DNA from: Ignavibacteria bacterium | Lineage (GTDB): Bacteria; Bacteroidota; Ignavibacteria; Kapaibacteriales; Kapaibacteriaceae | Assembly: GCA_016873895.1 (NCBI GenBank) | Contig: VGVV01000002.1 | Location: 314,152-378,151, forward strand | Reading direction: 5' to 3' | DNA: 64,000 nt | In this document: piece after piece, positions 451 to 11,426 of the stretch | Numbering within the stretch: the first letter of the stretch is position 1 | How the letters are laid out: each line of letters begins with the position of its first letter | Made by a program: the position numbers and the translations under genes | Notes under the pieces: model-generated | What the model was told of the DNA's origin: nothing | The model's input: only the letters and a program-made list of their open reading frames with translations | Database searches by the model: none

Positions 451-1072
451 TGTCGATGTGGTCGTATGGCGCATAGCCATTCGACAGCATGTGCACGTTG
501 TCTTCGATTTCCAAGAGTAGGGTAGGGAAGCCCCCTATACCCAGCGAGCCAACATACTCAAACTCGTCTGCCACCGCGTCGTGTATCTCAGACGAATTCA
601 TAAGCTCTACGAATTCGTCTGATTCAATACCTACCTCTGAAGCCAGCTTGCGGTAGGTGTCTTCGTTGTTCAGATCCAAACCATCGGCGTAGAGAGCCCG
701 CTGCAGCCTGTGGCTAAATTCAAGTGTTAACTCGGGACGCAGCGCGCGCATGGTTTCAAGGGCTCTGGAAGGGGGCTCGCTATCGAGCACGATGTCCTGA
801 CGCGTAAGCAGCCCATGTAGAAACGAATCGCCAAAGGTAACGCCGGTAGTTTCCTCTACACGTTGGCGTGCCTCACTTATAGAGTCTGCCATTTCCGAGA
901 GTGCACGCGTGTTGTAGCCAGTTATCATGCCACCTGAATAGACTACAACCTCAAGGTGTTCAGACCATTCTTCTGCGATAAGCATAATTGTTGGACCGAA
1001 GCCATAGCACCATCCGCAGAGGGTGTCTTGGAAGTAATGCAGGGTAGGACGTTCTCGAAGTTCGGAGTTCAT
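422..1072 (-). CDS. DsbA-family (FrnE-like) thiol:disulfide oxidoreductase
   Basis: 216 aa; N-terminal CGWCY thioredoxin-fold active-site motif typical of the DsbA/FrnE family. Confidence 0.7.
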
Positions 1073-2304
1073 GCCGTTTGCAGTCTGGTGCGAAGTGCAG
1101 TATCGATCTCATCGAGAAACTCCTGTGTATACAAGTAGTGCTCGCCGTGATGTACCTTATTGCCATGTATGCACACGGCAAGGTCCTTCGTCATTTTGCC
1201 TTGCTCAACGATATCGATGCAGACGCGCTCGAGGGTGTGGCAAAAGTTTACCAACTCTTGGTTGCCATCGAGCTTGCCGCGAAACTCCAAGCCCCGCGTC
1301 CATGCAAAGATCGAGGCAATAGGATTCGTTGATGTAGGCTTACCGTGCTGATGGTCGCGGTAGTGGCGCGTAACGGTTCCGTGCGCAGCCTCAGCTTCTA
1401 TCGTTTTGCCGTCAGGGGTTACAAGAACCGACGTCATAAGCCCGAGCGATCCGAAGCCCTGCGCTACAGTATCGGATTGCACGTCGCCGTCGTAGTTCTT
1501 ACAAGCCCAGACAAAGTTGCCATTCCACTTTAACGCCGAGGCAACCATGTCATCGATAAGACGGTGTTCATAGGTTATGCCAGCAGCTTCGAATTGGGCC
1601 TTAAACTCGTTTACATAGATCTCTTCGAAGATGTCCTTGAAACGTCCGTCGTACTTCTTCAGGATAGTATTCTTCGTGCTCAAATACAATGGCCAGCCTT
1701 TACCGAGGGCCTGATTCATGCAAGCCCGCGCAAACCCCATGATAGACTCATCGGTGTTGTACATTGCCAGGGCAACGCCATCGCTTTTGAAGTTGTATAC
1801 TTCGAAGCTTTGTGGATTTGATCCATCTTCGGGTGTGAACGTTACGGTAAGCTTGCCTTTGCCCTTCGTAACAAAGTCTGTTGCTCTGTACTGGTCACCA
1901 AATGCATGGCGTCCGATGCATATCGGTGCAGTCCAATTGGGCACAAGCCTGGGAACGTTGCTACAAACGATCGGTTCGCGAAATACCGTACCATCGAGAA
2001 TGTTCCGTATAGTACCATTGGGAGACTTCCACATCTGCTTTAGACTAAATTCCTTTAGACGCGCTTCATCAGGCGTGATCGTAGCACACTTGATCCCAAC
2101 ATTGTATTGTTTGATTGCCTCTGCAGCGTCAATCGTTACTTGGTCGTTGGTTGCATCACGATATTCCATACCAAGATCGAAATACTTGATATCAAGCTCG
2201 AGATATGGCAGGATCAACTTGTCCTTGATGAACTTCCAAATAATACGCGTCATTTCATCTCCGTCGAGTTCAACGACGGGATTGGCCACGTGAATCTTAT
2301 TCAT
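1069..2304 (-). CDS. icd: NADP-dependent isocitrate dehydrogenase (monomer-of-dimer, ~410 aa type)
   Basis: 411 aa with strong IDH signatures (NPxxEL.., [13 protein letters not shown]-like blocks); overlaps upstream gene stop by 4 nt. Confidence 0.85.
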
Positions 2305-2346: not shown

Positions 2347-2964
2347 TTAAAACGCGAACATAAGGCCTGCGGTGAACATCGAGACCTTATACTTGTTAAT
2401 GGAGTACTCAGTTGGCGGATTGCCGGCAGCGCTCGTCCATGTTTGCGGCTCAAAGACAGACGTTAACGGTAGAACATATCCGAGCAACAGGTCTATTCCA
2501 GAGATTGAGCTCATGCGCTCTACAAGGCGAAACCGCAGTGACCCGATTCCGTTGAATACCGCAGTGTTGTAACCTGCTAGAGACCCAGAGGCATTATCTC
2601 GTGTGCGGCTTCCGTTCTCAAATGTTAGACTGGCAGGTTCTTGCAAAGTTTCCGACTGCACATATCCAGCTGAGGCGATGATATAGCCATTGGCACCAAG
2701 ACCAAGCCAAACATTCTTCACGACAGGGTACTCAAACAACACGTCGATAGGCACGGTATGAAAGGTTACGTCGAGATTGTGCTGAAATACGGCATTAGCC
2801 GAGCCCTGCCCTGGAACAAAGACTCAATTGGTTGAAAATGATTCGAATGAAACAGGAAGCTGCGTATACCCAGTGCGTAACGAAAGCCGCAGGCCGTCGT
2901 CTGTACGTGGCAGGCTAGCTCCAATGAACCCTCCATAGCCGATACCGTTTGAGTTATTGATCCG
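2347..2964 (-). pseudogene. Degenerate paralog of the His-rich outer-membrane beta-barrel gene (4382..5290). It lacks the N-terminal third and carries an in-frame TGA at 2824-2826.
   Basis: The minus-strand translation reads ...NSNGIGYGGFIGASLPRTDDGLRLSLRTGYTQLPVSFESFSTN*VFVPGQGSANAVFQHNLDV...LMFAF. It aligns colinearly with SSKGIGYGFELAM...VAFESFSTEKAFTGGVVSGTALFRHTLDV...LGLAF of the intact copy. The TGA falls at a Lys position of that copy. No start codon or signal peptide is present. Confidence 0.5.
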
Positions 2965-4114
2965 TCAACAATGTTTGCGCTGGAAACAGAATTGTTAGCT
3001 AGAGTTGGATTCGGATACGTACCTGCCAGTGCGTCGCCCGCTGGACCACTTTGCGCTGTTGGTGCGATTGGAATCTGGTAGGCCGTAAGAACGCGTCCGG
3101 ATGAATCAACAGCGATAACAGCCGAATGTGTTGTTGATCCGTATTGTCCGGGGATAACTCCGGTTGGCACAAGCTTCTGGGTTGTAACGTTGTAGTCAAC
3201 AATCTTCGATGTAGTTACACTGTTATCAGCCAACTCGGTTGTTGTAACTGCTGCACGCGCAATCTTTTCGGTCGTGATTACACCATTCTTAATCGTTGGT
3301 GCTGGATAGAATCCGGTAAGCTCTCCACCTCCTGCGCCACCAAGAGGCACGCCAATGATTGGAACTTGCTCTGCAAACGTAACGCGGCCTTGTTCGTCAA
3401 CACGAAGTACCGTGCTCGAATTCGAAGAACCGAAAGGTCCGAGCGGGCCGTTGTGCATTTCCTGCAATTGAGCTGCCCCAACTGTATTGTCGTCAATCTT
3501 GAGGTTTAACGCATTGAGAGGTCCGCTTACGGTAATGTCTGATCCAGCTCGTGATGCAGTCCCTTGAATGCGAGCAGCATTGATCGCAGTGGTGCCGGTG
3601 TTGTTGATTACACCGATCAGCACATCGCCCATGTTGTTTGATGGGTTGTTGATGGACTTGCGGATGGAATCAGCAACCTCGCGAGTAACGGACGAGGCGA
3701 TCTCAGCAGACTTTGCGTTTAATGCATTCAAAGCATATGGCACGGCTGTTAAAAACACACGCGGAGCAATTTCGGCCCGACTGTTGATGGACGTTCCCAT
3801 CCACAGATGCTGATCAAATGAGATGTTTAGTGGAGTTTTCTCTCCGAGTATCACACCAAAGACGCCGCCACTGGTTGTAACGGTATGGCGCTCGGTCCAA
3901 ATGCCCGATCCAGCCGTAGCGTTCGTGTACAGAGTGAGATCACCTGTCCATACACAGTCACATACGGGAATGCCAGTTGTATCAATCAGCACACCTTGGT
4001 ACGTAATTATTTTTTCGGAATACCTTGTTGTGCGGAAACGCCGCTCGTTGCAAGGACTAACAAAAGACTCATACACACCGCTGACAGGCAGCAACTGAGA
4101 GACAAAACAGACAT
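2766..4114 (-). CDS. Paralog of the large cell-surface repeat protein (6212..7981), disrupted. The signal peptide (4007..4114) is in a different frame from the mature domain, and the 3' end runs out of frame into the degenerate barrel paralog.
   Basis: The mature region aligns to 6212..7981 (EKIITYQGVLIDTTG / RQISYQGIIYDATG; ISFDQHLWMGTSINSRAEIAPRVFLTAVPYALNA / VNFNQHLWLSLSVNGRTELAPRTFLTAVPYALNA). The signal peptide MSVLSLSCCLSAVCMSLLLVLATSGVSAQQGIPKK* terminates at an A6 run. A seventh A would restore GIPKKIITYQG. Confidence 0.5.
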
Positions 4115-4381
4115 ACCTAACCCCTGAGAGAAATGACCTTGTAATCCCGCTTGGATGAGCACTATCTACTAAATGTTGCTATGAGTGCGGTTCGCGGGAA
4201 CGCCGCAAAACTATACTGCACGGGGCTAGACTTTGCACTGCATGGTGTGGATAACACAGCGTAGTCATACACCAAGTATACTATGGCTGTGATGATTGTG
4301 CAGTGATGAACAGTATCTGTCCAAACGAAAAGGGCACCCAATTATGGATGCCCTTGTTGGAGTAGCGATGTGTCTTGTGAA

Positions 4382-5290
4382 CTAGAACGCGAGACCTAAT
4401 CCAGCGGATATCATTGCTACGGTGTATGAGTCTATATAAAATTGCGCTGGCGGATTACCATACATGCCACTCCACTTGTGTGGGTTGAACAACGGCTGCA
4501 GCGGCAATGAGTAGCGACCAAAGATGTCAACGCCGATCGTACCGATCTGCTTTTCAACCAAGCGTATACGCGCAGAGCCTGTAGCGCTAAAAACAAAATC
4601 GTTGTTGCCACGCACGTAGCCATTTCGATCGAGACGCGTACGAGTGCCACTTTCAAACACAAGATTGGATGGCTCTTCCAACGTTTCAGTTTGATGATAT
4701 CTGCCAGTAGCGAAGAAGTTTCCATCTAGGCCGAGGCCAAGAAAGAAGCCACCAAACAAGGGGTACTCCATGCGAGCCCCAAAGGTGACTACTGACCATG
4801 ATACATCGAGTGTATGACGGAACAGCGCGGTTCCCGAGACAACGCCTCCAGTGAACGCCTTCTCGGTTGAGAAGGATTCGAATGCAACAGGCATGTGCTG
4901 ATAGCCAACGTGTGGAGTTACCACAAATCCGTCGGCCGATACTGGAGTGGTCATGGCAAGTTCGAATCCGTACCCTATGCCCTTGCTGCTAGTAAAGCCA
5001 GTGCAACAGTTCTCAACAGGTGGCAGTGAATTGAATGAGCCATTGTGAGCGGCCTGTGTTCCAAAAACACTAAGGCTTATCTCGTCGTGGCTATGCTTCT
5101 TGCCATGATTGTGCACATGCTCATGATCATCTGCGAGCTCATGTACATGCGCATGATCATGAGGCTGGGAATTCTGCGTGGCATGCTCGTGCTGATGGTT
5201 GTCGTGATCGACAGGGACCGTCTGGGCCTGCATGCTCACCGAGAGTGCAGCATAAGCACAGACAACAACAGTTGATAGGAGTTTTATCAT
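4382..5290 (-). CDS. Outer-membrane beta-barrel protein with a His-rich (metal-binding-like) N-terminal segment
   Basis: It has a signal peptide (MIKLLSTVVVCAYAALSVSMQAQ). The His/Asp/Glu-rich tract is HDNHQHEHATQNSQPHDHAHVHELADDHEHVHNHGKKHSHDE. The C-terminus is the aromatic LGLAF, as in OM barrels. Its start overlaps the upstream gene by 4 nt (ATGA). Confidence 0.6.
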   Translation of the reverse strand: MIKLLSTVVVCAYAALSVSMQAQTVPVDHDNHQHEHATQNSQPHDHAHVHELADDHEHVHNHGKKHSHDEISLSVFGTQAAHNGSFNSLPPVENCCTGFTSSKGIGYGFELAMTTPVSADGFVVTPHVGYQHMPVAFESFSTEKAFTGGVVSGTALFRHTLDVSWSVVTFGARMEYPLFGGFFLGLGLDGNFFATGRYHQTETLEEPSNLVFESGTRTRLDRNGYVRGNNDFVFSATGSARIRLVEKQIGTIGVDIFGRYSLPLQPLFNPHKWSGMYGNPPAQFYIDSYTVAMISAGLGLAF

Positions 5291-6192
5291 GGTAGTTTCA
5301 CCATAATAGTCCGTACAACATCGTTATCTGTATAGATAGCAACGGTATATGATCCAGCAGGTATTACCTGCAGCTCAACCGAGGTAAGAGGCCATGTAGA
5401 GCCCGCCTCAACACGTTCGGCTGTATAGATAACGTTGCCGTGGACATCTGTAATAACGAGCGTGCCTGTCTGCTGCCGCTCAGAGTATGTCCGCATTGTG
5501 AATGATGACCCTGTAACAGGGTTAGGTGCAATCATTACTGCCATCTTGGATGGATCTTTGAGAAGGCGCGTTGATCCGTACGTGTTGCAGAGCCCGCGAA
5601 GTGTTACAGCCCCTGCTGTGGATTGGATAAACTGACGTTGTGCATCCTTCCAGCGGAAGGACTCAACGCGCACGTCTGTTGTAGAGTCATTGCCCAAACG
5701 CCCCATCAATAGCAGGCGAGCAATCACCCCTCCATTTGTTGTGGCTGTTCCTGAAACAGTAATAGTGTACCGATCTCCATCATCAACAAGCGAATCATAG
5801 CGAAGGGGCTCTAAAACTGTCCGATTGAAACTCACCTTGAGTTCCCAATCGCGAGACGTTGTGCTTGTTTGGAACAGTGCACATGATGCCGCGTATGTAA
5901 CATCGAGAGCGAATGTGTCGCCGATTTGCTTAACAACACTATCGATGCCAAGTAGCGTAGACTCGTAGTACTTCTGTACAGCATTGCCGTGACTGATGAT
6001 GCCAGAGCGTACGATTGGATCTAGTCCATTTTCGCCAACCATTGGCAAACCAACAGCCCCCTGCACACCGTAATCTCCTAGCATCGTGGAGCTCGTTGTT
6101 CCGCTCGTGATTGCACCACTGACTACGATCTGACTTTGCAGCACAGATGTGACTGTGCAAAGCAGACTGGCTATGATAAATAGATGTTTCAT
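5287..6192 (-). CDS. Secreted protein with a T9SS C-terminal sorting domain (Por_Secre_tail-like)
   Basis: It has a signal peptide. The C-terminal ~80 aa (IAPNPVTGSSFTMRTY...VITDVHGNVIYTAERVEAGSTWPLTSVELQVIPAGSYTVAIYTDNDVVRTIMVKLP) fits the T9SS type-A CTD pattern. Confidence 0.65.
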   Translation of the reverse strand: MKHLFIIASLLCTVTSVLQSQIVVSGAITSGTTSSTMLGDYGVQGAVGLPMVGENGLDPIVRSGIISHGNAVQKYYESTLLGIDSVVKQIGDTFALDVTYAASCALFQTSTTSRDWELKVSFNRTVLEPLRYDSLVDDGDRYTITVSGTATTNGGVIARLLLMGRLGNDSTTDVRVESFRWKDAQRQFIQSTAGAVTLRGLCNTYGSTRLLKDPSKMAVMIAPNPVTGSSFTMRTYSERQQTGTLVITDVHGNVIYTAERVEAGSTWPLTSVELQVIPAGSYTVAIYTDNDVVRTIMVKLP

Positions 6193-6211
6193 AGGTAGTG
6201 GTTCCAGAAGA

Positions 6212-7960
6212 TTAAGTGGTTGCCATCAAGACCCATTTACCCAATGTTCCAGAGTAAATGAATGTGATCGATTGGTTGTTACCAATTGTCTTGTTCGCAA
6301 CCCCTAGGATCAATTGATTGTCAGCGGCAGAGCGAGCATCTTCATTTTGGAACGTTATGTCCTTAGTCGACTGATTGATGATAATGATCACACGACCGTT
6401 TGCACCGTTTTGGAAACCCGTCACGTCTGCAGCCTGATTAGCATTTATCATGCGGAAAAAGGCATGCCCAGAGATGTTGATGTTATTGACAACGGTAGTA
6501 GTGCCTTTTAACTGATTGATGTCGATGGCAGTACCTTCACCCAAAATCAATTGCTTGATATTTTCGGTAGGGTTTGCAGGAATCCACTTGTTCGAGTCAG
6601 CATCAAAAATCAACGCGTCCCCATCATTGGGATTTAACACCGGATCTACTGCTTTTCCACCAATCGAGGCTGCTGTCGCGGTAACAGCAGCAGGCTTCCA
6701 TGTATTTGCTGTTGCATCCCACGTAAGAACTTGGTTGTTCGCTGGGGCTGCAGCAGCTACTGCTCTACCTTGAAGACCGTCAACCGTCGGATTAGGATAT
6801 GACCCGTCTAAGTCACCGCCGGCAGCACCGGTAGGTGCTGCGCCTGTAATTGTCACATTCTGTGCTAATGCAATGCGGCCGTTAGCGTCAACAGTAAACT
6901 GACCGACTTGCGTGCCAGAACCGTAAACACCAGCTGTGACACCGGTCGTGCTCATTTTCGCACCAGTAACTGCACCATCAGCGAGCTTTGCTGAAATGAT
7001 TGACCCCGCCGCAAGTTTTGCAGCAGTGACGGAGCTGTCAGCAAGTTTTGGTGTGGTTACTGAGTTGGCAGCCAACTTAGCAGCAGTTACAGAGCTGTCA
7101 GCAAGTTTAACTGTGGTAACAGAGTTGGCAGCGAGCTTTGCTGCCGTAACTGAACTGTCGGCAATCTTAGACGTGGTTACAGAGTTAGCCGCAAGTTTGA
7201 TCCCAGTAATAGTGCTATCGGCAATCTTCGCAGCTGTTACTGCATTATTGGCAATTGTTGGGTTTGGATATGTTCCAGCAAGGTCTCCACCGGCTGCACC
7301 ACTTGGGCTAACCCCAGAAATTGGCACTTGCGTGGCCGTAACAACGCGTCCCTGTGGATCAATAGTAATGACGGCCGATTCTGTTGCAGAGCCTATGGGG
7401 CCTATTGTTCTGGGGTGAATCTCTTCTAACTCTATTGCGCCAATTGTGTTAGGCCTAATTGTAAGGTTCATGCTATCAAGGCTGCCCGACACGTCGATGT
7501 CCGAGCCAGCAACTGCGGCAAGGCGGCCACGAATCTTGAAGACTACCGAATCAGCCACGTCATTTGCCATTCCCGACATATTCGACCACTCTGCATTGAG
7601 TGCGTACGGAACAGCAGTCAGGAATGTGCGTGGTGCCAGCTCGGTTCTGCCATTTACTGATAAACTGAGCCAGAGATGCTGATTAAAGTTGACGTTAAGG
7701 GGCGAGTTGTTGCCGAGCACTACGCTAAACATGCCAGATTTTGTCTGGATCGTGTGGCGCTCAAACCAAACAGGTGCTCCGCCGGCTGCCAGGTTGTACA
7801 TTGCAAAGTCCACAATGTATGTGCTGTCACACGCTGCAATGCCTGTCGCGTCGTAGATAATGCCTTGGTAAGAAATCTGCCTCGGAATGCCAGGCTGGGC
7901 GTTCGTTGCCACACCCAAAACAAGTAATGCAACGACGAGTACGCCAAGTTGTTTGCACAT
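6212..7960 (-). CDS. Large cell-surface repeat protein (adhesin or fibre-like) that contains about ten copies of a 10-aa xKLAxxSVTx repeat
   Basis: 589 aa ORF whose likely start is Met8 (MCKQLGVLVVALLVLGVATNAQ signal peptide). It is Gly/Thr/Ala-rich with AGTYPNPT motifs. It is paralogous to 2766..4094. Confidence 0.6.
   Translation of the reverse strand: MCKQLGVLVVALLVLGVATNAQPGIPRQISYQGIIYDATGIAACDSTYIVDFAMYNLAAGGAPVWFERHTIQTKSGMFSVVLGNNSPLNVNFNQHLWLSLSVNGRTELAPRTFLTAVPYALNAEWSNMSGMANDVADSVVFKIRGRLAAVAGSDIDVSGSLDSMNLTIRPNTIGAIELEEIHPRTIGPIGSATESAVITIDPQGRVVTATQVPISGVSPSGAAGGDLAGTYPNPTIANNAVTAAKIADSTITGIKLAANSVTTSKIADSSVTAAKLAANSVTTVKLADSSVTAAKLAANSVTTPKLADSSVTAAKLAAGSIISAKLADGAVTGAKMSTTGVTAGVYGSGTQVGQFTVDANGRIALAQNVTITGAAPTGAAGGDLDGSYPNPTVDGLQGRAVAAAAPANNQVLTWDATANTWKPAAVTATAASIGGKAVDPVLNPNDGDALIFDADSNKWIPANPTENIKQLILGEGTAIDINQLKGTTTVVNNINISGHAFFRMINANQAADVTGFQNGANGRVIIIINQSTKDITFQNEDARSAADNQLILGVANKTIGNNQSITFIYSGTLGKWVLMATT
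6955..7255. repeat. Intragenic 30-nt (10-codon) tandem repeat, about 10 copies, encoding (A/S)KLA(D/A)(S/N)SVT(T/A)
   Basis: The same motif recurs at 30/60-nt spacing in the DNA (gcagcaagttttg...acagagttggcagc...). In the protein it reads KLADSSVTAAKLAANSVTT x4-5. Confidence 0.6.
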
Positions 7961-8235
7961 GCTGTAGAACTGTGAACTCATGCCTATAACTCCATGATGA
8001 GTAAAGTTTGTAATCGCATTTAAGACAAGTGGGGATAAAATACGGTTTTATCGTCCGTATGCAATTATCCACATGAAGCCTTGGTTATTCCACATTTATT
8101 CACAACTGTGGAAATCTATACTGTGAAACTGTTGCGAGGTTCGTCAGGAAATGCTAAGTAGTTGTAAAATATTATTGTTGAGAGTTTCTACAGCGCGGGA
8201 GCACTGCTGTGCACATGCGAATCACCATAGCAATA

Positions 8236-8260
8236 AAAAAAGCGCCCCTAGGCGCTTTTG
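8236..8260 (-). terminator. Rho-independent terminator downstream of tRNA-Arg
   Basis: aaaaaaAGCGCCcctaGGCGCTtttg: a GC stem flanked by an A-run and a T-run, so it is bidirectional in form. Confidence 0.6.
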
Positions 8261-8293
8261 TATCCAACTCTTACTTGTGGGTAACAATATCAG

Positions 8294-8367
8294 CGGCCTC
8301 GAGAGGATTCGAACCTCCGACCCACGCTTTAGGAAAGCGTCGCTCTATCCGGCTGAGCTACGAGGCC
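8294..8367 (-). tRNA. tRNA-Arg (anticodon CCT)
   Basis: GGCCTCGTAGCTCAGCCGGATAGAGCGACGCTTTCCTAAAGCGTGGGTCGGAGGTTCGAATCCTCTCGAGGCCG folds into a cloverleaf with a 7-bp acceptor stem and a T-loop TTCGAAT. The anticodon loop is TTCCTAA. Confidence 0.85.
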
Positions 8368-8385
8368 TTAAGATGATTACAGATT

Positions 8386-8515
8386 ACCAGTTACTAATGA
8401 CTAATGACTAATTACGAATTACCAATGACCAATTACCAATGACCAATTACTGACTGGGTGTCGCTCAATTTACCAATGGTAACTCGTCATTCGTCATTAG
8501 TCATTCGTACCTGAC
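8386..8515. repeat. Repeat-rich intergenic element. It has 14-bp direct repeats (aattaccaatgacc x2.5) and TAATGAC heptamers, with an inverted copy (gtcattcgtcattagtcattcg) forming a long imperfect palindrome.
   Basis: Read directly from the sequence: actaatgactaatgac (8392-8407) pairs with gtcattagtcatt (8495-8507). The nearly palindromic ttaccaatggtaa lies at 8470-8482. Confidence 0.5.
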
Positions 8516-8516
8516 T

Positions 8517-9401: not shown

Positions 9402-10157
9402 CTACGAAAGATCCGATTGACTGCGCGCCTCTTTCACTTTCCAGAGCCCCCACCATGGCGTACCAGGCGAAAGATGGTGTTCACTATGGTAGCCAAAGAA
9501 GTAGCACGATAGCATCGCAAGAGCGTGATTGAGCTTCATTGACCGAGCATTGTGAGGCATGTCTGCTGAATGGGGCTTGCGGTGCGGCAGAAAAGTTCCA
9601 ATTGTGAAGAGCTGCATAGCACCAATAAATGCCGGTATGATCCAAAAGACCCAGAGCTTGGGTTCGGGAATCCCCAAAACCAGCTTTAGCAGGTTGAAGA
9701 CCGTACCCATGATCAAAAACTGGCTTACTGTAGCATAGCGCCACATAAACGATGCAAACCAAACAATGTAATTGTTCGATGGATGATAATCGGGATCTGC
9801 TGCGTCATCAGCAGGATGCGCATGGTGTTTGTGATGATTTTGATACAGACGTGTATAGGACAGACCTGCAAACAGGAACGACGCAACGGTGCCGATGTAT
9901 GTATTTGTCCTTTGCACGGGAGATACAACACCGTGAATTGCATCATGCGCGGTAATGAATAGCCCCGTAGACAAATACCCCTGCACAAGCGCGTGTATGA
10001 TTCCGCTGGCGAGCGTTAACTCAACATAGCCAAGCGTCCATACAAGATGCAGAACCCATAAGCTGATGATTGTGACGGCGATTCCTAAACCCATTGCAAC
10101 AAATTTCGAACGAAAGCAGTGATACGCAATATGTCGGTTGTAGATTCGTACCCACAA
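9402..10157 (-). CDS. Membrane di-iron desaturase/oxygenase, CrtW-like (putative beta-carotene ketolase)
   Basis: The His boxes are HDAIHG, HHKHHAHP and HSEHHLSPGTPWW. A GTFLPHRKPH motif resembles the CrtW FGTWLPHRP block. The protein is 251 aa with about 4 TM segments. Confidence 0.5.
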   Translation of the reverse strand: MWVRIYNRHIAYHCFRSKFVAMGLGIAVTIISLWVLHLVWTLGYVELTLASGIIHALVQGYLSTGLFITAHDAIHGVVSPVQRTNTYIGTVASFLFAGLSYTRLYQNHHKHHAHPADDAADPDYHPSNNYIVWFASFMWRYATVSQFLIMGTVFNLLKLVLGIPEPKLWVFWIIPAFIGAMQLFTIGTFLPHRKPHSADMPHNARSMKLNHALAMLSCYFFGYHSEHHLSPGTPWWGLWKVKEARSQSDLS

Positions 10158-10163
10158 CGACCC

Positions 10164-11426
10164 ATGAGAATACTTCGTTCCATACTATTCGCGCTCATCG
10201 CAGCTGCAACGAGCCTTCAGGCACAAAAGCTCATAATCCCGATGGATCTTGAGCAATCGAACCATTTAAAGGCCTATGGTATTGTGTATTGGATCCTCAC
10301 AAAAGATCAGCCGGTTGACTGGCTGCTGAATTACAGAGGGGGCTCCTTCGTTACCGACTATTCAGAACAGATTGCCTCTGAGTGTCGAATTCGTGGTGTT
10401 TCGTTTGATGCTGTTGACGGTGCCAGTATTGCTACCATCTACTCGGAGGTGCAGTCCGAAAAGACAAACATGGATGTTGTCCGCCTCGAGAAAGCACCCA
10501 AAATCGCAGTCTACGCTCCGCCCGGATTTCGGCCTTGGGATGATGCAGTGACGCTTGTGATGGAGTATGCTGAGGTGAAGTATGAAAAGCTCTGGGACGA
10601 AGAGGTGATGAAGGGTAAACTCTCCGAGTATGATTGGCTTCACTTGCATCATGAAGATTTTACGGGCCAATACGGGAAGTTTTACGCGAGTTCAGCAGGT
10701 GAATCATGGTATATCCAGCAGGTAGCCTTGCTTGAGAACACTGCCCGAAAGTTGGGCTTTGCAAAAGTTAGCGAGCTGAAGAAGTCTGTTGTCGAGAAGA
10801 TTCGTGAGTTCGTTGCCAACGGCGGGTTCATGTTTGCTATGTGCAGTGCTACTGATACATACGACATTGCGCTTGCCTCTGCAGGAGTAGATATCTGTGA
10901 TGTTATCTATGATGGAGACGGGGCGGACATGAACGCCAATAACAAGCTTGATTATTTACGCACGTTTGCATTTCAAGACTTTCAGCTTATCATGAATCCA
11001 CTGCAGTATGAGTATTCAACCATCGATGTGGATGCAAATACAATCCTGCAAACAGAGTCGAGCGACTATTTTACGCTGTTTGATTTCTCTGCTAAATATG
11101 ATCCAGTACCGACCATGCTAACGCAATGTCATGTGAATGTGATCAAAGGTTTTCTCGGGCAGACAACAGCATACCACAAGAATCTTGTCAAGAAGTCGGT
11201 AACTGTTCTCGGTGAACGAGAGGGTACAGATCAGGTACGCTATATACACGGTAATGTTGGACGTGGCACGTATACCTGGTATGGCGGACATGATCCAGAG
11301 GATTATCGTCATGCTGTTGGAGACCCGCCAACCGATCTCAAGCTTCATCCGAATTCGCCGGGATATAGGCTTATCCTGAACAACATCTTGTTTCCTGCCG
11401 CAAAAAAAAAGAAGCAGAAGACCTAG
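10164..11426 (+). CDS. Secreted hypothetical protein
   Basis: Signal peptide (MRILRSILFALIAAATSLQAQ). The FMFAMCSATD segment faintly resembles a class-I glutamine amidotransferase/DJ-1 nucleophile elbow. The C-terminus is a lysine-rich tail. Confidence 0.45.
   Translation: MRILRSILFALIAAATSLQAQKLIIPMDLEQSNHLKAYGIVYWILTKDQPVDWLLNYRGGSFVTDYSEQIASECRIRGVSFDAVDGASIATIYSEVQSEKTNMDVVRLEKAPKIAVYAPPGFRPWDDAVTLVMEYAEVKYEKLWDEEVMKGKLSEYDWLHLHHEDFTGQYGKFYASSAGESWYIQQVALLENTARKLGFAKVSELKKSVVEKIREFVANGGFMFAMCSATDTYDIALASAGVDICDVIYDGDGADMNANNKLDYLRTFAFQDFQLIMNPLQYEYSTIDVDANTILQTESSDYFTLFDFSAKYDPVPTMLTQCHVNVIKGFLGQTTAYHKNLVKKSVTVLGEREGTDQVRYIHGNVGRGTYTWYGGHDPEDYRHAVGDPPTDLKLHPNSPGYRLILNNILFPAAKKKKQKT

Follow-up and report, generated by a model that had tools for sequence, protein, structure and literature searches.

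A conserved three-gene cassette encoding a tail-fibre-like protein and two candidate envelope partners, with a decayed tandem copy, in freshwater Ignavibacteria

The 64-kb stretch of DNA analysed here (the window; positions 314,152 to 378,151 of contig VGVV01000002.1, from the Ignavibacteria bacterium assembly GCA_016873895.1) contains a minus-strand operon of three genes, termed A, B and C, and directly downstream of it the remains of a second, paralogous set. A encodes a fibre that resembles phage tail fibres and the MAT fibres of Bdellovibrio, B a cohesin-like protein with a C-terminal sorting domain (CTD) of the type IX secretion system (T9SS), and C an outer-membrane beta-barrel. We consider, with a probability of about 0.8, that this is a conserved locus of a freshwater Ignavibacteria/Kapaibacterium-like lineage that ancestrally held two tandem cassettes, of which cassette 1 is intact in the window and cassette 2 is a pseudogene, and that it encodes a fibre together with its partners. 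While a duplication with one decaying copy is ordinary, a fibre module with two such partners is undescribed, and the literature searched contained no paper linking T9SS, cohesin-like proteins and tail-fibre-like fibres. In the preliminary description of this DNA the intact operon was called locus 2 and the remnant locus 1. Here, locus 2 is cassette 1 (A, B and C), and locus 1 (2347..4114) comprises the remnants A' and C'.

Results

Gene order of the cassette is retained over deep divergence

The three-gene operon that the preliminary description had placed at locus 2 was recovered in full, with all three open reading frames (ORFs) on the minus strand: gene A at 6212..7981 (589 amino acids, aa), gene B at 5287..6192 (301 aa) and gene C at 4382..5290 (302 aa). 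A and B are spaced by 19-20 nt, and B and C overlap by 4 nt. The order A-B-C was found at every locus where the contig permits it to be read, including all eight (8/8) of the extra metagenome contigs. It extends to distant homologues. On contig L019 the fibre is 36% identical to A; of the two genes that come after it, the first matches the B profile from end to end (E=6e-32) and the second the C profile (E=4.8e-28). On contig L018 the gene after the fibre encodes a larger B-like protein (E=1.4e-11), and the one after that a protein whose N-terminal part is a C-like barrel (E=3e-8). Other fibres in this family adjoin small proteins with a T9SS CTD, of the CHU_C, Por_Secre_tail and FlgD_ig types. 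A metagenome scan with the B family returned the same clade only, and the alignment of the fibre N-domain was too divergent to seed a scan. Because this gene order has been kept over deep divergence, A, B and C probably work together, and it is the main evidence that they do.

The alternative that survives best, although we regard it as improbable, is that the three genes are merely co-located and have independent functions, C being, for instance, a porin-like protein that binds metal and B a T9SS cargo unrelated to the other two. A His-rich linker in C does hint at a metal role, and A itself is without a T9SS signal. However, the A-B-C order is invariant, with tight spacing or overlap, in both paralogous cassettes and in all relatives sampled, and it is retained where the proteins are only ~30-36% identical. 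Neither the B nor the C family was seen outside the A-B-C arrangement, and the N-domain of A, B and C have diverged to a similar extent between the paralogs (~45%). In addition, one of the two barrel types (C2, described below) keeps the arrangement without having the His-rich segment.

Relatives carry one or two tandem cassettes in the same slot

In all relatives the cassettes occupy a slot with common flanks: DUF494, YbeY and tRNA-Arg upstream, and isocitrate dehydrogenase (IDH) and DsbA downstream. In the window the upstream edge is the tRNA-Arg(CCT) gene (8293..8367, minus), immediately upstream of gene A, and the downstream edge, as in every relative, is the NADP-isocitrate dehydrogenase gene (1069..2304, minus), whose product is 92-94% identical to those of the relatives. 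Since the same flanks are present in all relatives, the locus is chromosomal and not a mobile island. A mobile island at tRNA-Arg was considered and ruled out, given the shared slot and flanks and the lack of integrase or phage genes; neither an integrase nor an att-like repeat was found beside tRNA-Arg, where the arrangement is kept in relatives.

The slot holds two tandem cassettes in six lineages and cassette 1 alone in three. Two complete cassettes (A1-B1-C1-A2-B2-C2) are present on contigs L004, L005, L008/9/10/12, L011 and L013, and on L015, which ends inside A2; L006/L007, L014 and L016 have cassette 1 only. Two contigs of a single study, L005 and L006, have flanks that are >99.3% identical, with a clean indel of 6,663 bp between them that takes in cassette 2 and nothing else (L005 11149..17811 versus L006 ~11148), with no more than 2-3 nt of microhomology at the junction. 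Cassette 2 is thus present or absent at the strain level between the two. One of the cassette 1-only contigs, L014 (JBIICY010000003.1), belongs to a metagenome-assembled genome (MAG) titled 'Patescibacteria group bacterium' and has the locus in full synteny with Ignavibacteria/Kapaibacterium MAGs; the title is probably a taxonomic mislabel or the result of a binning error.

The duplication is old, judging from the protein sequences: the N-domains of A1 and A2 are ~45% identical, B1 and B2 45-50%, and C1 and C2 41-45%. A' is 67-68% identical to the A2 of relatives (from aa 8/14 to 370) as compared to 37-40% to A1, and C' is 49-52% identical to C2 as compared to 42% to C1 (tblastn); at the DNA level A' and A2 are ~74% identical (blastn). 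As both remnants are more similar to A2 and C2 than to A1 and C1, locus 1 is the ortholog of cassette 2. By Nei-Gojobori estimates, nonsynonymous change on the window A' branch (~0.13) is ~3-fold that on the orthologous branches (~0.04), and the branch of the intact window A is not accelerated. Duplication followed by degeneration, the first of two histories offered in the preliminary description, is therefore borne out, with two intact cassettes in six relatives and a cassette 2 with three inactivating lesions in the window. The description had also set down that intact, differently organised locus 1 genes in close relatives would speak against it; this applies only in so far as relatives retain an intact cassette 2, and what this genome holds is a remnant. 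Cassette 2 appears to be dispensable and to have been lost repeatedly.

The length of A1 ranges from 589 aa, with the window copy the shortest so far, to ~2070 aa, and A2 is steady at 1617-1650 aa. The A1 spread arises from gain and loss of shaft modules of ~87-160 aa (L004, L005, L008 and L013-L017 as compared to the window, in genomes with IDH 92-94% identical). Concerted evolution or gene conversion between the C-termini of A1 and A2 was considered, and no signal of it was found.

The second cassette was inactivated by three lesions

In tblastn searches of the whole window, residues 36-400 of A matched 4007..3000 at 38% identity (E=2.9e-70) and residues 96-302 of C matched 2970..2350 at 42% identity (E=7e-50), and no second copy of B was found. 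This similarity is far beyond chance, and it upholds the description of locus 1 as paralogous to A and C with the middle gene absent. One further tblastn extension, of C2 into 3102..2971, was discarded as a compositional artefact that crosses stop codons in an S-rich frame.

The remnant begins with an ATG at 4114 and a signal peptide (4007..4114, minus; MSVLSLSCCLSAVCMSLLLVLATSGVSAQQGIPKK*, from the three-frame translation, in which the asterisk marks the stop) that reads ...AQQGIPKK before ending in TAA at 4009..4007. Alignment with five A2 orthologs showed that this stop codon was made by a 2-nt 'TA' insertion at 4009..4008; the orthologs read ...GIPKKITYQGVL... without the extra 2 nt. Homopolymer slippage or a programmed -1 frameshift at the adjoining A6 run was considered as an origin of the lesion and ruled out, since the orthologs show a 2-nt insertion. 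The body of A' (2962..4007, minus; tblastn, blastn) comprises the N-domain and the first two shaft modules of an A2-type fibre. It is open throughout in a frame that differs from that of its own signal peptide, and it is ended by a deletion. At the deletion junction (2952..2961, minus) A'-type sequence (…ANIVDGSIT) switches to C2-type sequence (NNSNGIGYG…) in another frame. Comparison of cassette 2 on L005 (6.6 kb) with locus 1 (1.77 kb) gives a deletion of ~4.8 kb, the missing parts being residues ~370-1617 of A2, the whole of B2 and residues 1-62 of C2. What remains of the barrel, C' (2347..2958, minus), runs from residue ~63 of a C2-type barrel to the natural stop (2349..2347) and is interrupted by an internal TGA at 2826..2824 (FESFSTN*VFVPG in the frame translation), so that its tail appears as a 135-aa ORF (2347..2754, minus). 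The signal peptide, the S/T-rich linker, the first strand and the conserved LPPxENCCxGF loop have all been lost from C'.

The frameshift, the in-frame stop and the barrel truncation that were first noticed at this locus are thus all real, but their nature is now more precise: the frameshift is a 2-nt insertion, and the absent middle gene and the truncated barrel result from one event, because a single ~4.8-kb deletion fused A2 to C2 out of frame. The supposed loss of a His-rich N-terminus from the barrel was a misreading, as orthologous C2-type barrels carry an S/T-rich linker in that place. Locus 1 is a pseudogene both in its disrupted frame and in the essential parts that are missing relative to five intact orthologs. 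Besides the three lesions, no stops or frameshifts are present in its ~1.65 kb, and this small number of lesions indicates that the locus was inactivated late, compared with the time of its split from the relatives at hand.

The preliminary description had left room for a phase-variable alternative cassette, switched by slippage at an A-run or serving as a silent donor for antigenic variation of the fibre. The frameshift does adjoin the A6 run, the collinear modules common to A and A' might recombine, and fibre length and cassette number vary greatly among relatives. However, the lesion is a TA insertion with respect to five orthologs and lies outside any simple repeat tract, and repair of the frame would still leave a fibre cut by an irreversible 4.8-kb deletion, no B2 and a stop in C'. 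No inverted repeats (which also rules out an invertible promoter) and no recombinase genes were found nearby; the C-termini of A1 and A2 bear no trace of gene conversion, and at 38% aa identity A and A' are too dissimilar for homologous exchange. All three lesions also recur in three independent assemblies from different samples: the contigs that carry barrel gene C in two JGI samples and in a Logan run are 99.88-100% identical to the window over the shared region, and no indel in locus 1 was seen among them. A switchable or donor cassette is therefore very unlikely, and a pseudogene of cassette 2 remains the preferred explanation of locus 1.

An assembly artefact from mis-joined or collapsed repeats, a concern with metagenome-type assemblies and with fibre genes that have internal repeats, is less likely still, as the junction fuses non-homologous sequence (fibre shaft to barrel) in a way that repeat collapse is unable to yield, the same structure is present in assemblies of two JGI samples and in one Logan assembly, the cluster of the 436-aa A' ORF (P0080) has nine member sequences from three sources, and the internal repeats in the window are diverged (79% matches). 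Assembly collapse was likewise rejected as the cause of the short A, its internal repeats matching at 79% only.

Protein A is a tail-fibre-like protein with a MAT-like N-domain

Protein A consists of a Sec signal peptide, a MAT-like N-domain (aa ~29-130), two DUF5907-type shaft modules and a C-terminal region of ~190 aa that ends in a beta-sandwich. The shaft modules have GGDLxGxYPNP motifs at residues 231 and 388, with 11-residue repeats in between. A matched the tail fiber family phrog_28766 of the PHROG collection (E=1e-27), and the longer A2 of L005 matched phage tail-fibre PHROGs at E=1.6e-75. Matches were also obtained to DUF5907 and, just above threshold, to PF25692 (Phage_depo_C; 25.3 bits, cutoff 25). 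The N-domain of A scored 19.5 bits (E=6.6e-4) and that of A' 21.5 bits against NF053851 (Bdello_MAT_N), which has a curated cutoff of 60 bits. This model was matched by 21 of 38 family members at E<=0.01 (best 1.7e-9), and none reached the curated cutoff; the recurrence of such sub-cutoff matches indicates homology at the superfamily level. The wider fibre family numbers >3000 matches, with tips that include Kelch, TonB_C, DUF2760, C1q, S74 and Phage_depo_C domains. The S74-chaperone and C1q tips are trimer-specific, and by family resemblance A is probably a trimeric fibre as well. A sequence search of the PDB with A returned only a weak repeat match to 9eg4 orf16, and the C-terminal domain has no PDB sequence relative.

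Neither the Pfam nor the NCBIfam T9SS models matched A at E<0.1. The C-terminal domain was also considered as a cryptic T9SS CTD and rejected, as hhalign against the B family gave a probability of 0.6%. The suggestion made for the cassette from the outset, an adhesin with a dedicated outer-membrane partner, was reasonable and is strengthened by the conserved synteny; what it missed is that A is more specifically phage-tail-fibre-like and MAT-like, and that B is as much a part of the module as C.

The likeness of the A shaft to phage tail-fibre PHROGs, the match to a phage depolymerase C-terminal domain and the tRNA gene directly upstream might together suggest that the cassette was left behind by a prophage or a phage-tail-like particle, and that A is a true tail fibre of a phage. 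However, A starts with a Sec signal peptide, both of its neighbours B and C are envelope proteins without matches to phage families, and no other phage genes accompany the cassette, which has housekeeping flanks and the same position in all relatives. Cellular MAT fibres, moreover, share the phage-like build (PMC10769870). A phage origin of the cassette as a whole is thus highly unlikely, and A is better read as a cellular fibre.

Protein B combines a cohesin-like domain with a T9SS sorting domain

Protein B has a signal-peptide-like N-terminus, a Gly-rich N-segment (aa ~20-76), a cohesin-like beta-sandwich (aa ~78-198) and a CTD (aa ~217-299). The T9SS sorting domain first noted in B is supported by the TIGR04183 model, which matched residues 221-296 above its cutoff (23.6 bits, cutoff 23) and also matched 18 of 22 family members (best 8e-7), and by the AlphaFold2 (AF2) model, whose C-terminal fold matched the CTD of RgpB (5ag8; Foldseek, PDB). 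The Pfam T9SS sorting model (PF18962) scored 21.4, under its cutoff of 27. From this sorting domain, B is expected to be surface-attached after type IX secretion.

In the AF2 model, of medium confidence here, the central domain aligns with type I cohesins (Foldseek E 1e-6 to 1e-5, probability 1.0, TM-score by target 0.53-0.60), with a root-mean-square deviation of 4-6 A over ~145-157 columns and a sequence identity of 12-18%; no cohesin match in B was obtained with Pfam. The Gly-rich N-segment (GGxITSGA…GQPxxG…; window 5965..6135) is conserved and is modelled with low confidence. It recurs in short proteins that consist of the segment and a T9SS CTD only and that adjoin other fibres of the family (L018 5280..5867; L021 5434..5961), and from this recurrence it may be the fibre-binding element. 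Sequence searches of the PDB with B and C gave nothing useful and no phage-family matches were found for either; both families are unannotated.

Protein C is a small, OmpA-like outer-membrane beta-barrel

Protein C is laid out as a signal peptide, a disordered His-rich linker (aa ~27-68) and a barrel of ~10 strands (aa 70-301) with a terminal Phe, the sequence ending in ...GLGLAF. The AF2 model has a mean predicted local distance difference test (pLDDT) score of 72.7, and the barrel lies at ~65-95 per 10-residue block except in the loops at 88-97 and 278-281. Foldseek against the PDB matched the fold to the transmembrane domain of OmpA (OmpA-TM), Pla/OmpT, NspA, OmpX and Ail, the first four at E 4e-5 to 1e-3. 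C itself is under all Pfam and NCBIfam thresholds, and 2 of 15 C-family members weakly match OMP_b-brl (Pfam). A search with the C-family profile found 806 relatives, among them proteins with OMP_b-brl_2 and C-terminal OmpA domains; in many of the 806 the match is to the barrel at the N-terminus of an OmpA-type protein, and it is via these profile relatives that C is linked to PF13568 (OMP_b-brl_2). Taken together, the model, the Foldseek matches and the OMP_b-brl_2/OmpA relatives bear out the original assignment of C as an outer-membrane beta-barrel. No match to the PorP/SprF models was found at E<0.1 for C or C' (NCBIfam, Pfam), nor for any of 15 family members (Pfam). Eight of 15 C-family members (window C, P0122-P0137) weakly match the Pfam Autotransporter beta-domain (best E=9e-5), a similarity that may be compositional but is of note if C handles a fibre.

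The two barrel types differ in the linker that precedes the barrel. In C1-type barrels, 40-50 aa rich in His (HxH/HDH) lie between the signal peptide and the barrel (window 5087..5212; L004-L017), whereas C2-type barrels have an S/T-rich linker in place of the His-rich one. The His-rich linker weakly resembles segments of Ni/Co and Zn transporters, and its composition suggests metal binding, in the periplasm if the barrel has the usual topology. The loop LPPxENCCxGF, with a vicinal cysteine pair, is invariant in the C family (aa 89-99; window 4994..5026) and is kept in the distant L019 homologue (LPQVENCCLGF; L019 10048..10881). It lies between strands 1 and 2, in a low-confidence part of the model.

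Signals and genes around the operon

A terminator-like hairpin (4330..4355, minus; 11-bp stem followed by a T-rich stretch; consensus scan) lies 27 nt past the stop codon of C and is the probable end of the A-B-C transcript; terminator-like sites in the same scan are no commoner across the region than expected from shuffled sequence. A second such hairpin, that of tRNA-Arg(CCT), lies at 8238..8259. A scan for sigma-70 promoters was uninformative, with counts equal to the shuffle expectation; other promoter types were outside its scope. In the JGI contig L001 the intergenic stretch between the DUF494 gene and gene A (~7982..8516), upstream of A, carries a 7-nt indel relative to the window; apart from this, the two sequences are separated by four substitutions over 9 kb. 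Three genes upstream of the cassette, past the DUF494, YbeY and fatty-acid desaturase genes, lies a conserved ORF of 431-435 aa (10119..11426, plus) whose N-terminus resembles a signal peptide and which belongs to no Pfam family. All relatives have this ORF, called there as 420-431 aa.

Discussion

On the interpretation favoured here, a conserved fibre cassette with a decayed tandem copy, A would be displayed on the cell surface as a trimeric adhesin or recognition fibre. B would be exported by the T9SS, become attached to the surface and tether the fibre through its cohesin-like domain or its Gly-rich N-segment, and C would form an outer-membrane platform or passage for the fibre, so that B and C would be cognate partners of A in export, anchoring or both. 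The cassette would serve adhesion or recognition, with its copy number and the length of its fibre under diversifying or fluctuating selection. The weakest step of this mechanism is how A crosses the outer membrane. A tentative answer, which we think is possible but rather doubtful, is a display system of an undescribed kind, in which a MAT-type fibre without a secretion signal of its own is carried or held by the T9SS-sorted B and the OmpA-like C, that is, by a 'piggyback' route with anchoring in trans. If true, such in-trans T9SS display would be the first candidate answer to what anchors MAT-like fibres.

Several observations weigh against the interpretation of the cassette as an adhesive fibre module with a recently decayed copy. 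No T9SS sorting domain that would take A across the outer membrane could be recognised in it. The match of A to Bdello_MAT_N is far below the NCBI cutoff (19.5 versus 60 bits). The C-terminal ~190 aa of A have a mean column identity of 79% within the clade, across both paralogs; such a conserved C-terminal domain is unexpected for a variable receptor-binding tip and makes an adhesin role uncertain. The cohesin-like assignment of B comes from an AF2 model of medium confidence (mean pLDDT 69, with the cohesin-like domain at roughly 65-93) that was built from a shallow alignment. Finally, an attempt to date the pseudogene by the ratio of nonsynonymous to synonymous change (dN/dS) failed, since synonymous change was saturated between all available relatives.

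The locus is of interest in several respects. MAT-like fibres, apparently derived from phage tail fibres, occur in uncultured freshwater Bacteroidota in strict linkage to two unannotated envelope proteins, and there is a hint that the T9SS may display proteins without a sorting domain of their own. The variation in fibre length (589 to ~2070 aa) and cassette number between close relatives fits selection on surface interactions, for instance with phages or grazers, in attachment or in contact between cells. The decayed copy is a well-resolved case of tandem surface-cassette loss, for which full, partial and clean-deletion states can all be seen among the relatives.

Among the closest known counterparts of A are the MAT fibres of Bdellovibrio bacteriovorus, which are surface-located and trimeric and whose conserved N-domain presumably binds a surface element that has yet to be identified (Caulton et al. 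2024, PMC10769870). Like A, the Bdellovibrio MAT proteins (NF053851) have a signal peptide, a beta-rich N-domain, to which the A family gives weak but repeated matches, and a long shaft of phage-tail-fibre-like repeats, and like the A family they have mosaic C-terminal tips, including the S74 chaperone, and several paralogs per genome. Unlike them, A belongs to a Bacteroidota lineage that is not known to be predatory, has a C-terminal domain that is conserved within the clade, and shares its operon with a cohesin-like protein sorted by the T9SS and with an outer-membrane barrel, partners of a kind that has not been reported for MATs. The synteny described here therefore supplies candidate partners for the surface element of MAT fibres, in a different phylum from Bdellovibrio. 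Phage tail fibres (PHROG 28766, 892; PF19264, PF25692) share the DUF5907-type shaft repeats with A, and the C-terminal beta-sandwich of A resembles, at threshold, the phage depolymerase C-terminal domain; unlike phage fibres, A is chromosomal, has a Sec signal peptide and lies between conserved housekeeping flanks with no phage genes nearby.

Two further systems resemble the cassette in its organisation. In the SprB/SprF-type pairs of Flavobacterium, the gene for a T9SS adhesin, large and repetitive, lies upstream of one for its cognate outer-membrane barrel, which is PorP/SprF-like. As in the present cassette, a gene for a big repetitive surface protein is followed by one for a barrel of ~300 aa, the T9SS is involved by way of B, and cognate pairs occur as paralogs; however, neither a type-A nor a type-B CTD was detected in A, the CTD is on a third protein (B), and C looks OmpA/OmpT-like. 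In cellulosomes, type I cohesins, on which the central domain of the B model superposes, tether partners to the cell surface, but no dockerin was found in A, and B would be anchored via its T9SS CTD rather than by SLH domains or sortase. Finally, the OmpA/OmpX/OmpT barrels (OMP_b-brl_2, PF13568) share with C both the fold and the C-terminal aromatic residue, and C is set apart from them by its His-rich N-linker, its invariant ENCC loop and its long extracellular strands.

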